Shown: piece after piece, positions 21,302 to 24,237 of the stretch
How positions within the stretch are numbered: position 1 is the stretch's first letter
Layout: the number at the start of each line of letters is the position of its first letter
Assembly: GCA_016185815.1 (NCBI GenBank)
Contig: JACPMT010000053.1
Span: forward strand, 1-33,273
Source of the DNA: Candidatus Woesearchaeota archaeon
GTDB lineage: Archaea > Nanobdellota > Nanobdellia > Woesearchaeales > GW2011-AR4
Direction of reading: 5' to 3'
Length of the DNA stretch: 33,273 bases
Notes under the pieces: generated by a model
Told to the model about the DNA's origin: nothing
The model's database searches: none
What the model saw: only the letters and a program-made list of their open reading frames with translations
Translations under genes and position numbers: made by a program

Positions 21302-22102
21302 ATGCCTAAAACAAAAATCTCCATAACAATCAACGAAAAGACATTACATGACATAGATTCCATCATTGACAATGTGTATATCCGCAACAGAAGCCAAGCT
21401 ATAGAGCACCTTGCCAAGAGCGCCTTGGGAGAGAACAAGTCAGCTGTAATTCTCCTTGGCGGCAATGACAGGCATTTGAGGATTTCAAAAGAAGACTACA
21501 GGCCGACTGCAAGGATAAAAAACAATCCTGTCATAGAACTTGGGTTGAAAAGGCTGAGGGAAAACAATTTCAAGACTGTGTTCATTGTCGCAAGGCATAA
21601 TTTATTGACTAAGTTGTTTGAGATGCTGAAAGACGGCACAGGTTACGGGGTAAAAATAAGCTATATTGAGGAGAAATCCTCCAACGGCACTGCTGATTCC
21701 TTGAGGCTCCTGAAAGGCAGGGTTAATGCAAATTTCCTTGTTGTTTACGGCGATATAATTTTTAACAGGATAAACATTGAGGAATTGTGGAATGACCACA
21801 TAAAACAGAATGCAATTGCAACAATAATGCTTACTACATCTTCAAAACCTAGCGAAAAGGGAACTGTAAGGGTTGAGGGCAACAAGGTGCTTACCTTCAC
21901 CCAAAAGCCTAAAAAATCAGACATTTACCTTGTTTTTTCACCCATCTTTGTCGCAGAGCCGCAGATTTTCGAATACCCGGGCGCAAGCCTTGAGTTCAAT
22001 GTCTTTCCCGAGCTTGCTGAGAAAGGGCTGCTTAACGGGCATTTAAGCTCTGAAAAGGAAGTTCATATACATAACAAAAGAGACATTGAAAAGTTAAGAT
22101 AA
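21302..22102 (+). CDS. fusion of an N-terminal ribbon-helix-helix domain with a nucleotidyltransferase-fold domain that has a diverged G-loop
   Basis: KTKISITINEKTLHDIDSIIDNVYIRNRSQAIEHLAKSAL (RHH). Then AVILLGGNDRHLR...RPTARIKNNPVIELGLKRL aligns to the canonical LAGGxGTRL...KPL..i.gkPii, but GTR is replaced. Divergent from the ugd operon across a 63-bp gap. Confidence 0.7.
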   Translation: MPKTKISITINEKTLHDIDSIIDNVYIRNRSQAIEHLAKSALGENKSAVILLGGNDRHLRISKEDYRPTARIKNNPVIELGLKRLRENNFKTVFIVARHNLLTKLFEMLKDGTGYGVKISYIEEKSSNGTADSLRLLKGRVNANFLVVYGDIIFNRINIEELWNDHIKQNAIATIMLTTSSKPSEKGTVRVEGNKVLTFTQKPKKSDIYLVFSPIFVAEPQIFEYPGASLEFNVFPELAEKGLLNGHLSSEKEVHIHNKRDIEKLR

Positions 22103-22103
22103 A

Positions 22104-23099
22104 TCATATTGTAAACCCACAATTAGCCTCTCTATACGATTCTAAAACTTGATTATTATTACCTGAGCTAGAATAAATTATTTTTGCTAATTCTACATCA
22201 GTACTCGGTCTTTTATTTTTCATCTCTGTTGTTATTTGTTTTATAAAATAAGAGTTTTGTTTATTTAGAATTTCATCGTAAATAATATAAAATGACATAG
22301 TTTGGCAATTGGTATCTTTTCTTTTTTCTCCGAACGACCAACCAGATATTGGAGGATTGGGTCTATTAGCCTCTAACATCGAGAAACCCACCCTATAAGC
22401 TTCTATCTGTGAGTCATATACCTGATGACACTCTGGAACATATTGATATACATACGTTTGGATTGGGAAAGTGAATACATGATTAAGATCGTAGTTAAAT
22501 TTACTCCAATCAAAATTTAAACAATTAAGGAAAGAATGTACTAATTCGTGATGAAAACTATAGCATTTGTCCTCAGCAGTTTCCCATTGATTATCTATAG
22601 AATATATAATTTTACCAGCAGAACATCCAGAGGCATTTTCTCCACAGTTTTTAATCAATTCGTCCTCTTTTACATAACGAAAAATAATGGGAGGTTTCCA
22701 ATTACAAGTATCAAAATTAGTATTAGTAATATCCTTTAAGACTTGAAAGAATTTCTCATGCACTATAGTAGATTTGCCACATTTCTCAATAAAATTTGGT
22801 ATATTTGGGCAATCTGATATTATATTGTCTGTATAGAATAATACCCTATCTGTATGATACACTGACGGAATATTAAAAAAATCTATCTTAAGTGAAGAGT
22901 ATCCTTTAGGGCATTTATTATTAAAAGCACAGTTTTCATAAATCTTATAGATATTCTTAATTTGTTTTTCTTCTAAATAGCTATTTTTGACGAATCTATA
23001 ACCTTCATAATTCCCAAACTTACTCTTAAAGAAAAGCATAATTATAATAATTGAAACCAAAGTTATAGAAAAATTAATTATTAAGTGTTTAAATTTCAT
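22104..23099 (-). CDS. membrane-anchored Cys-rich protein with HExxH motif (putative zinc metallopeptidase)
   Basis: N-terminal TM INFSITLVSIIIIMLFF, motif CYSFHHELVHSFLNC, many Cys residues. Very AT-rich gene. No family recognised. Confidence 0.55.
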   Translation of the reverse strand: MKFKHLIINFSITLVSIIIIMLFFKSKFGNYEGYRFVKNSYLEEKQIKNIYKIYENCAFNNKCPKGYSSLKIDFFNIPSVYHTDRVLFYTDNIISDCPNIPNFIEKCGKSTIVHEKFFQVLKDITNTNFDTCNWKPPIIFRYVKEDELIKNCGENASGCSAGKIIYSIDNQWETAEDKCYSFHHELVHSFLNCLNFDWSKFNYDLNHVFTFPIQTYVYQYVPECHQVYDSQIEAYRVGFSMLEANRPNPPISGWSFGEKRKDTNCQTMSFYIIYDEILNKQNSYFIKQITTEMKNKRPSTDVELAKIIYSSSGNNNQVLESYREANCGFTI

Positions 23100-23158
23100 A
23101 AGGTAATATTATAAGGTTCTTTATATAAACATTCCCAAAAGAAATTCTAAGATAAATT

Positions 23159-23220
23159 AAGGTGGACAGCTTTTCCAGGCTCCCACACATAAGTGCAGTA
23201 CTGCTGGAAACGGAGGCTTG
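23159..23220 (-). pseudogene. partial copy of the 3' half of the 5S rRNA gene (direct repeat of 24090-24151)
   Basis: 62 nt with 60/62 identity to 24090-24151. Differences are C/T at 23180 vs 24111 and A/G at 23189 vs 24120. Homology stops abruptly after ...GGAGGCTTG. Confidence 0.85.
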
Positions 23221-23412
23221 TTATAAGTATATTAACACTTAAAGCCTACTATCTTTGATTTATTCTCCATTTAAATCATCTTAACATAGTCTCAACCGCC
23301 AAATTATGATTTTTGTTTTCTATATTGAAAATAAGCACTGGACATTCTCACGTATAATATTTAAACTAAAATCATTTAAGCAGTTTCAACACAAAAAAAG
23401 TCAGTGATTTAA

Positions 23413-24084
23413 ATGATTTCAAAAAATTTCGCAAGATGCTTGGCTAAGATAAGTGGTGATGGATATTTACATCATCGATATATCAGATATAATAATACTT
23501 GTGAAGAACTTCTCCAAGAATTTAAAGAGGATATGGCTGAGGAGTTTGGCAATATTAAATTTACAGAAGGAATTAATAATTCTGGCACAAGATTCGTTCA
23601 CGTTACCAGAAAACAAATTGTAAATAAATTTCTTGAATATCAAGATGATTTTAGAAGTAGTTCAATTTATGTTCCAGAAATAATAAAGAGAGCTGACAAA
23701 TCAATACAAAAAGAGTATTTAAGGGTGTTATATGATGATGAAGGCTGCGCTGCTTTAAGACTCTATGTAAAAGGCAAAGAATGGAAGAGAAACATAACAT
23801 TGACATCTAATTCCTTAAGGCTGTTGGAAGATGTTAAGTCAATGCTTTTTAGTTTTGGTATTAAGTCAAACAGAATTACCAGAACAAAGTCTAATAGCCT
23901 TAAAGACAAGTCTTACGTTCTAAGCATAACAGGCAAAGATAATATAGCCAAATTCAGAGAAAATATAGGTTTTAAGCATCCAGAGAAGGCTAGAAAGCTG
24001 AATTTAATGGTAAAATCTTATATAGCTAATTCTAGAAATATTAGGGAATTTGAAAAATTAAAAGTGGAGCTCATGTTCCCATAA
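23413..24084 (+). CDS. LAGLIDADG-family (two-motif) homing endonuclease
   Basis: Motif 1 is [11 protein letters not shown] (aa 9-19) and motif 2 is [14 protein letters not shown] (aa 102-115), separated by about 90 aa. The 223-aa size is typical of monomeric archaeal enzymes. The stop lies 7 nt from the 3' end of the 5S gene. Confidence 0.85.
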
Positions 24085-24089
24085 TAATA

Positions 24090-24237
24090 AAGGTGGACAG
24101 CTTTTCCAGGTTCCCACACGTAAGTGCAGTACTGCTGGAAACGGAGGCTTGCTTAACTCTCACGCGAGCCGAGCTCCAAAGCTCAATCCGTGTTCGGGAT
24201 GGGAACGGGTGAACCAAGCCCCTATGACCGTCCAAGG
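24090..24237 (-). rRNA. rrf: 5S ribosomal RNA, about 145 nt, with a 28-nt extra segment
   Basis: The reverse complement reads TTGGACGGTCATAGGGGCTTGGTTCACCCGTTCCCATCCCGAACACGGA[TTGAGCTTTGGAGCTCGGCTCGCGTGAG]AGTTAAGCAAGCCTCCGTTTCCAGCAGTACTGCAC...CCTGGAAAAGCTGTCCA. It has the universal CCCGAACACGGAAGTTAAGC box (interrupted), helix I TGGACGG/CTGTCCA and helix II GGCTTG/CAAGCC. Confidence 0.85.

Follow-up and report, generated by a model that had tools for sequence, protein, structure and literature searches.

The stretch of DNA considered here, referred to throughout as the window, is a 33,273-nt contig belonging to a Candidatus Woesearchaeota genome bin, and the subject of this report is the locus around the one 5S ribosomal RNA (rRNA) gene found in it. 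Close to the 3' end of this gene is a convergent open reading frame (ORF) for a LAGLIDADG endonuclease, and on the far side of that ORF there is a second copy of the 3' part of the gene. The most probable explanation of this arrangement, with a probability that may be put at about 0.78, is that it represents a LAGLIDADG homing cassette for which the 5S rRNA gene is itself the target. The original prediction, made when only the sequence of the window was to hand, had proposed an element of just this kind, carrying its own replacement for the 3' half of the gene, and the proposal is now supported by the existence of empty sites in related genomes, by an insertion boundary that is shared among loci, and by evidence that the distal copy of the 3' part is the native one.

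Filled and empty alleles of the 5S gene

The components of the locus, together with the basis on which each was recognised, are as follows.

24187..24235, minus strand: 5' part of the 5S rRNA gene (5S positions 1-49, ending ...CGAACACGGA), from the Rfam 5S_rRNA match and a reading of the sequence.
24159..24186, minus strand: 28-nt insert, UUGAGCUUUGGAGCUCGGCUCGCGUGAG, at 'site B' of the 5S gene; an insertion in the Rfam alignment and a candidate mini-intron of relaxed bulge-helix-bulge (BHB) form, HBh'.
24092..24158, minus strand: in-gene 3' part of the 5S gene (positions 78-144, AGUUAAGC...CCACC), contiguous with the 5' part and completing the Rfam model.
23413..24084, plus strand: LAGLIDADG homing endonuclease gene (223 amino acids; Pfam LAGLIDADG_3), convergent with the 5S gene.
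23221..23412, plus strand: spacer of the cassette upstream of the endonuclease gene, presumed promoter or leader, with two conserved motifs.
23161..23220, minus strand: displaced native 3' part of the 5S gene (positions 85-144), a direct repeat in its original place beside the downstream flank.
23228..24186, strand not applicable: whole inserted cassette, ~959 bp, from alignments of filled with empty alleles and of junctions.

Relative to an uninterrupted 5S gene, what the cassette brings is the 28-nt insert, a new 3' part, a 7-nt gap, the endonuclease gene and the spacer. That an intact 5S gene lies on the minus strand, as had been predicted, is confirmed by the Rfam match (24235..24092), which covers the full model with 41.3 bits (gathering score 38), a low value due to a 27/28-nt insertion in the alignment right after ...CGAACACGGA. 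The two-motif ORF (23413-24084) is indeed convergent with the gene, its stop codon being separated from the 5S 3' end by 7 nt (24085-24091). A repeat search returns a direct repeat of 66 nt (23155-23220 and 24086-24151; 95% identical, 931 nt from start to start), within which the 62-bp repeat first described (23159-23220 and 24090-24151) has 2 mismatches and is, as stated at the time, 60/62 identical; the same search found no further repeat of >30 nt or >85% identity in the 2.5-kb region. Since the arrangement recurs in independent assemblies (L001/L051, L002/L064/L091/L132, L003, L018 and L109, where L-numbers denote loci compared with the window), it is not an artefact of assembly, a possibility that had been raised with the original prediction.

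How closely the ORF is tied to 5S genes is best judged from a scan of a genome collection for homologues, which gave 33 loci, including an assessable subset (L001-L024) with enough sequence and with proteins 42-82% identical to that of the window. In 24/24 of these the ORF has a 5S gene as its neighbour, ~10-115 nt away, and in 22 of them it is convergent with that gene, with the stop codon 10-50 nt away (other orientations occur in L022 and L023); in L008, L010 and L013 the unit of 5S gene and ORF is inverted relative to the flanking genes, yet the two have been kept together. The converse question may be put to a scan of metagenomes using a pattern for the 5' end of the 5S gene, which gave 120 loci. 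Roughly 10% of these carry the ORF, and 69 of the 76 unique 5S sequences having at least 1 kb downstream are without it.

Many of the ORF-less loci keep the neighbours seen in the window, in the order NFACT-5S-p266-p433 (p266 being window positions 21302-22102). Looking for such empty sites had been suggested at the outset as a check, and they are found in relatives with the same flanking genes: the 5S genes in them are 115-117 nt long, contain no insert, and have their 3' end 2-12 nt from the end of p266, as for instance in L055 (where p266 is 89% identical to that of the window), L137/L144, L121, L125 and L048, while L128 has the same neighbours but ~200 nt extra before p266. L137/L144 and L002/L064 have one and the same 5S sequence, except that the former lack the 27-nt insert as well as the ORF and the duplication. 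What these comparisons reveal is a presence/absence polymorphism at one precise site, the filled and empty alleles having flanks and junction in common.

Alignment of filled with empty alleles (L064 with L144, and both the window and L051 with L055) places a single insertion of ~960 bp at CGAACNCGGA^AGTTAAGC (CGGA^AGTT), the meeting point of helix III and loop B, which is here called site B. In 5S sense, the insertion consists of the 28-nt structured insert, a complete new 3' part, the antisense endonuclease gene and a spacer of ~190 nt. The boundary had originally been put at AGTTAAG|CAAGCC, and it is certainly true that homology between the two repeats stops there in the window; however, the original junction, 7 nt further 5' than this visible edge, coincides exactly with the 3' end of the 28-nt insert. 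The displaced copies of L018 and L002 open precisely with AGTTAAGC/AGTCAAGC (AGT(T/C)AAGC), their first nucleotide being the one that follows the 27/28-nt insert of the complete gene. Decay has affected the first 3-7 nt of the displaced copy in both the window and L001 (in the window, the first 7 nt of the spacer, 23221-23227, are the decayed start of this copy), and in L015 decayed homology still reaches site B. It was considered whether the short perfect copies in L012, L015, L024 and L005 might be independent insertions with different breakpoints, an idea that was set aside because the residual homology up to site B in L015 makes decay of one type of junction the more economical explanation; for L012, L024 and L005 individually, the choice between decay and independent insertion is ambiguous.

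The two copies of the 3' part also differ in their affinities. In L001-L004 and L018 the end of p266 directly adjoins the partial 5S copy, which must therefore sit where the empty alleles have the 3' end of their 5S gene: the original 3' part is to be found ~0.9 kb downstream, beside its original flank, as a dead copy. The displaced copy of L018 has 0 mismatches to the empty alleles L137/L144 (with 1 difference in the next 41 nt of flank), as against 3 differences for the in-gene 3' part, which differs in helix IV (GTACTTACGTAC vs GTGCTCAGCAC). In L001 the displaced copy is the same as in L053 and one step from L055, L112 and L128, with 3 differences for the in-gene part, while in L003 the displaced copy belongs to another 5S lineage having compensatory helix changes (CTGG...CCAG) and the in-gene part is that of L142. 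Because in these three loci, and in L109, the displaced part is closer than the in-gene part to the uninterrupted genes of relatives, the in-gene part must have been imported with the cassette, the distal copy being the recipient's own. For the window, whose displaced copy has the sequence found in-gene in L001, the donor/recipient comparison is uninformative, as its two copies differ at only 2 positions.

Displaced copies are short or decayed in L015, L024, L012, L005/L063 and L107, whereas the in-gene copy completes the 5S model in every locus; it follows that the proximal copy is the working one. In a set of 111 loci, long partial copies of the 5S gene are confined to those with the ORF. 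L057 and L092 have partial 3'-end copies and no ORF (see below). Two further features were noted near displaced copies, namely a DndB-like protein encoded between the displaced 5S part and the endonuclease gene in L025 (2635-3825), and an Rfam RT-16 RNA (RF03019, 58.6 bits) ~1 kb from the displaced copy in L015 (2555-2712, minus strand).

The spacer contains the motifs GCACTGGACATT (23335-23346) and CACTTAAAGCC (23236-23246). The former, which in 5S sense is the 12-nt motif AATGTCCAGTGC, lies ~65 nt upstream of the ATG of the endonuclease gene in the window, L001-L004, L007, L008 and L018 and ~41 nt upstream in L012/L013 (overall range 41-66 nt); it is present in L107 too, and has been kept although the endonuclease proteins are only 50-82% identical. 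It may be a promoter or operator, or, given its resemblance to GGAAAGCTGTCCACC, a relic of an older displaced 5S 3' end. A motif GGCTTTAAGTG is kept in the window, L001, L002 and L018.

The endonuclease and the structured inserts

The ORF product is identical to NCBI protein HYX04_04125 and matches Pfam LAGLIDADG_3 with E 5.8e-16. It has >100 homologues of ~225 amino acids (47-86% identity), nearly all of them from Woesearchaeota/Nanoarchaeia genomes and metagenomes. Its two motifs, CLAKISGDG (with D16) and LRVLYDDEG (with E110; the form across the family being LR(A/V)(F/L)YDDEG), each keep an acidic residue at the penultimate position, and D16 and E110 are invariant in 29 aligned homologues, as are W124-K125-R126 and S132-N133-S134, which fall in predicted beta-strands. 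A search of PDB sequences with the family profile returned nothing at E <= 0.01. The AlphaFold (AF2) model has a predicted local distance difference test (pLDDT) score of 93.5 and a predicted template modelling (pTM) score of 0.90, and Foldseek matches it to I-DmoI, I-Tsp061I and the endonuclease domains of PI-PfuI and TliVMA at E 1e-10 to 1e-8 (template modelling score ~0.7, target-normalised), with probability 1.00 to the structures 7qsu, 1dq3, 2dch and 2vs7. Model and matches agree in showing two pseudo-symmetric alpha-beta-beta-alpha-beta-beta-alpha domains. Going by the model and the alignment, then, the ORF is predicted to encode a single-chain two-motif LAGLIDADG endonuclease having the fold and the invariant acidic residues of active archaeal enzymes. 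As judged from sequence divergence it is under purifying selection, the ratio of non-synonymous to synonymous substitution rates (dN/dS) being 0.06-0.18 in pairwise comparisons among six orthologues, all of whose ORFs are intact.

Some minor points concern the distribution of this family. The loci L013 and L014 match in their 5S gene, their endonuclease (in both cases 50% identical to that of the window) and their p433 (52% in both); the respective bins are labelled 'Nanoarchaeia' and Candidatus Portnoybacteria, a bacterium of the candidate phyla radiation (CPR), which looks like mis-binning, and several other loci carry the label 'uncultured Methanosarcinales'. Distant LAGLIDADG relatives (30-32% identity) adjoin transfer RNA (tRNA) genes: in L027 (4001-4713) there is a tRNA-Asp gene 54 nt downstream, and in L031 (3720-5238) an intron-containing tRNA gene lies upstream and a tRNA-Lys gene downstream. 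No partial tRNA duplications were found around the distant relatives beside tRNA genes in L027, L031, L028 and L032.

Turning to the insert in the 5S gene, 21 distinct site-B inserts of 26-31 nt were collected, and all are built to one plan: [A/U]U, a hairpin, A, a 4-nt tail and AG. The tail is complementary to exon positions -6..-3 in four covarying versions (CACG/CGUG, CUCG/CGAG, CACA/UGUG and CCUG/CAGG), and these two 4-mers are paired in 96% of alignment cells, forming a central 4-bp helix. For the insert structure as a whole 92.6% of cells are paired, whereas shuffling gives 75% and a shift of the partner columns 21-57%, and 8/9 pairs show a compensatory change; RNAalifold, unaided, arrives at the same 4-bp helix followed by a 3-nt bulge and then the hairpin. 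Each junction is situated 2 nt to the 3' side of a helix strand, the 5' junction being in the 3-nt bulge that precedes the hairpin h', and the 3' junction 2 nt beyond the helix. (An alternative pairing of the 3' tail with loop B, UCAC, was rejected, as it does not covary.) In BHB motifs the cut within the bulges is generally placed 2 nt beyond the helix. The archaeal splicing endonuclease is described as acting on a 4-bp helix that has on either side a 3-nt bulge with a splice site (PMC7714728, PMC3978253), and the name HBh' for the relaxed form follows the nomenclature of PMC3978253. The 28-nt segment belongs to the element itself and looks like a small archaeal intron of BHB type, and it is probably excised from the pre-5S RNA as a mini-intron.

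Insert and ORF tend to occur together. In the genome collection 16/24 ORF-bearing loci have the insert, while in the set of 76 unique metagenomic 5S sequences described above (12 of them, all ORF-less, being unparsable at site B) both are present in 5, the insert only in 6, the ORF only in 2 and neither in 51 (Fisher p = 0.001, kinship ignored). The insert-only locus L074 (94% identity to the window across 189 nt) carries an insert exactly like that of the window and keeps the last 13-22 codons of the ORF, after which comes unrelated DNA; L110 has the same 5S gene as the ORF-bearing L140, but without the ORF. The link between the two is thus strong, but not obligatory.

Site B is not the only place at which 5S genes of these organisms are interrupted. 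In a survey of related loci (L034-L153, plus others such as L004), inserts of 25-100 nt occur in 29/91 unique 5S sequences (e.g. in L004, L036, L041, L066, L095 and L039), at three sites within 12 nt of one another, after CCCAU, CCCGAA and CNCGGA respectively. In all three classes an exon 4-mer pairs with the 3' 4-mer of the insert and the junctions come 2 nt further on, with covariation such as TCCC/GGGA vs TCTC/GAGA and CCCG/CGGG vs CTCG/CGAG; to judge by these pairings, all three look like BHB-type mini-introns. Some 5S genes (those of L004, L053, L131 and L098) have two inserts; in L053 a pair of AbrB/SpoVT-like and PIN-like genes of toxin-antitoxin type (5S-sense +175 to +860, a call made by eye from the translations) sits between the two-insert 5S gene and p266. 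There is also a practical consequence, in that insert-bearing 5S genes score 38-45 bits against Rfam RF00001 (gathering score 38) and the genes of several relatives (L002-L005, L007, L010, L012-L015, L017 and L018) fall below the threshold. Standard annotation must therefore miss many 5S genes in these genomes, and it should be borne in mind that, owing to the inserts, the 5S genes of these organisms lie near or below Rfam thresholds.

Proposed mechanism and alternative explanations

In the scheme proposed here, the enzyme would cut uninterrupted 5S DNA at or near site B (the positions of the junctions being the basis for both target site and cut), and the break would be repaired by copying from a cassette-bearing allele, in which the 5' part of the 5S gene and the 3' part that had been displaced would act as homology arms. 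With 5S sequence in both arms, the cassette could be moved, much as an intron is, into any related 5S gene whatever its neighbourhood; and because it supplies a new 3' end directly, there would be no dependence on the removal of ~900 nt from a 120-nt RNA. The first such structure would probably have arisen by one-sided copying followed by end joining. In the healed gene the 28-nt insert would split the recognition site, thereby probably disrupting the enzyme's target, and the displaced copy would be without the left half-site, so that the carrier genome should be immune; the insert would then be the determinant of immunity, itself probably being excised from the pre-5S RNA. A cycle of gain, decay and loss would fit the states that are seen, namely empty alleles, filled alleles, filled alleles with a decayed displaced copy, and alleles in which the insert has been kept but the endonuclease lost or truncated. 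A more far-reaching proposal is that DPANN archaea possess a two-part homing system, in which BHB-type introns of the 5S gene would confer immunity against an endonuclease encoded outside the gene, whose cassette heals the gene with a new 3' exon, and in which the three classes of insert (29/91 5S sequences) would be what an arms race between this endonuclease family and the 5S alleles has left behind; this is tentative, and we would give it somewhat less than an even chance.

There are a number of observations that count against this scheme, or against parts of it. Eight ORF-bearing loci (L006, L009, L011, L016, L019-L021 and L023), and in addition L107 and L145, have no insert at site B, implying that the insert is not required for coexistence with the ORF, and about half of the insert-bearing 5S sequences have no ORF. 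Immunising substitutions at site B were sought in the insert-less ORF loci, and gave only the suggestive finding of one extra nucleotide at or beside site B in L006, L019 and L020 (GGA-T-AGTT, CAG-C-AAGTT and CAG-T-AAGTT respectively), which could be an immunising change or a repair scar. No convincing outer exon-exon helix h of the strict BHB motif exists at the insert; a fit of the strict motif hBHBh' was tried and lacks this helix, so that only the relaxed HBh' form is claimed. Endonuclease divergence roughly parallels that of the flanking p266, and selection on the ORF is strongly purifying, observations that long vertical residence or a host function would fit too. Lastly, the copies in L057 and L092 demonstrate that duplications of the 3' end can arise or persist without the gene, and that the 5S 3' end may be fragile.

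If a host function were the answer, the ORF would be a conserved host gene for a domesticated LAGLIDADG protein, staying next to 5S on account of a role there (regulating transcription as WhiA does, for example, or taking part in processing or in maturase-like assistance to the insert), and the duplication would be an old scar, with no mobility today. The parallel divergence of ORF and p266 would be expected on that basis, as would the dN/dS values of 0.06-0.18 with every examined copy intact and the survival of the 5S linkage through rearrangement of the flanks, and it may be added that WhiA and the bI3 maturase, both of LAGLIDADG fold, are among the fold matches. Against this, the ORF is missing from ~90% of related 5S loci, and by p266 its ORF-less relatives are as close to the window as carriers are, or closer (L124 93% and L055 89%, vs 89% for the carrier L001); both catalytic acidic residues are invariant, the contrast between imported and native 3' parts speaks for transfer between lineages, and L074 retains a truncated remnant. 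Domestication is for these reasons considered unlikely. Another alternative is that the duplication is independent of the endonuclease, the 5S 3' end being a general hotspot for insertion or tandem duplication (by slippage or illegitimate recombination) in which a LAGLIDADG gene has landed or been trapped. L092 does have a tandem duplication of a 141-nt unit made up of the last 23 nt of the 5S gene plus spacer (5S-sense +93 to +397), in L057 a TauD-family dioxygenase gene separates the 5S gene from a decayed copy of its 3' end at a distance of 1.44 kb downstream (+146 to +1615), neither locus having an endonuclease gene, and other genes are found in or beside the region (the DndB-like gene in L025, the toxin-antitoxin pair in L053 and ORF331 in the window). 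What such a hotspot would leave unexplained is that six out of six long duplications start at site B or within ~12 nt of it and in every case enclose a member of this gene family along with the conserved spacer motif, that long copies are confined to ORF-bearing loci, and that the junction coincides with the position of the insert; it must be rated quite unlikely.

The remaining alternatives take a different view of the segment between the repeats. Archaeal rRNA introns often carry LAGLIDADG genes, and the distal copy begins exactly at the position of the insert, so that the whole ~960-nt segment might conceivably be one large intron, with the working gene formed by the 5' part and the distal 3' part, and the proximal part a mere passenger. 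However, distal copies are decayed or truncated in L015, L024, L012, L005 and L107, the proximal copy always completes a canonical 5S fold, neither the 4-bp helix nor the tail is present before the distal copy, and the ORF is antisense to the 5S gene, making a large intron very unlikely. The locus could also be thought of as what is left of an integrase-type integrative element whose attachment site was the 3' end of 5S, for such elements are usually recognised by direct repeats of an RNA gene's 3' part, and a 'degraded integrative element' had been offered as an alternative in the original prediction. Yet the repeat-bounded segment is <1 kb and has the same minimal content in every locus: the LAGLIDADG gene is the only ORF of at least 60 amino acids between the repeats that is conserved among homologues, there is no recombinase gene there, and no recombinase was seen in the flanks compared. 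As no integrase is present, this alternative is not needed, and its probability appears close to negligible.

Relation to known systems

Archaeal LAGLIDADG enzymes are known from introns of 16S and 23S genes and from inteins. Those encoded in rRNA introns (I-DmoI, I-Tsp061I, I-PorI and others) are like the enzyme of the homing cassette proposed here in fold and size (Foldseek E 1e-9 to 1e-8) and in having a conserved archaeal rRNA gene as their target, but they belong to 16S/23S introns in sense orientation, whereas the present ORF is encoded on the other strand, outside the 5S gene and 7 nt beyond its 3' end. A parallel in architecture is provided by the mobile-ORF (mORF) elements of fungal mitochondria, in which an endonuclease ORF and a foreign C-terminal part have displaced the native C*-terminal part of a gene; examples are atp6 of Allomyces macrogynus and atp6, atp9, cox2 and nad3 of Glomus sp. 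(PMC3630166). In both cases the gene's 5' part is followed by an imported 3' part, then by the endonuclease gene and lastly by the native 3' part that was displaced; it is this native part that matches close relatives, the enzyme is of LAGLIDADG type, and transfer between lineages is inferred; indeed, the reasoning used above to identify the in-gene part as imported and the distal part as native is that employed for the fungal elements (PMC3630166). The differences are that the host gene here is a structural RNA gene (5S rRNA) in an archaeal chromosome rather than a mitochondrial protein gene, that the ORF is on the opposite strand and not in frame with the host gene, which is non-coding, and that a 28-nt structured insert is found at the junction.

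A second comparison is with phage collaborative homing. There a free-standing endonuclease acts with a neighbouring ORF-less intron, the insert protecting the carrier and both being mobilised together (PMC6083498), and a related case is the trans-homing of the nrdB intron by T4 mobE (PMC2790892). As in those systems, the endonuclease gene here lies outside and beside its target gene, and an ORF-less insert is located at the presumed cleavage site. Unlike them, the present locus has its protection and cleavage deduced rather than demonstrated, the insert would be a BHB-type intron of 26-31 nt and not a group I intron, the enzyme is LAGLIDADG rather than Endo VII or HNH, and part of the gene has been duplicated. 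Structured insertions inside 5S coding sequence are known as expansion segments, from Halococcus morrhuae and others, the survey in question including only Halobacteriales among the archaea (PMC7812874). Inserts in the present loci differ from these in being present or absent between otherwise identical genes and in occurring at three sites within 12 nt, and their splice-motif geometry points to introns rather than to retained segments. A survey of CPR bacteria reported no insertion of at least 100 bp in any 5S gene (PMC11270868).

In the literature no report was found of a homing element targeting 5S or of an archaeal 5S intron, in keeping with the original remark that no description of 5S genes as homing targets in archaea was known to its author. 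The architecture matches those of mORF elements and of phage collaborative homing, and its occurrence in an RNA gene, in 5S and in an archaeal chromosome is new. If the homing interpretation is right, it shows a selfish endonuclease colonising a gene too small to host it, by sitting outside, replacing the 3' part and leaving a 28-nt insert behind; it would also join three phenomena that have been described separately (3'-end replacement in mitochondria, collaborative homing in phages and BHB introns in archaea), offer, in the empty, filled, decaying and lost states, a natural series from which to study the life cycle of homing endonuclease genes in uncultivated archaea, and predict a new meganuclease specificity for a conserved 5S sequence of ~20 bp.

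One further feature of the window, the ORF331 mentioned above, is a 331-amino-acid ORF on the minus strand (22104-23099), between p266 and the displaced 5S part. It has a G+C content of 0.22-0.32, compared with 0.40-0.44 in its neighbours, and encodes an N-terminal hydrophobic segment and many cysteines; a Pfam search gave no match. The ORF is missing from all syntenic relatives, and so represents an insertion of ~1.06 kb specific to the window.

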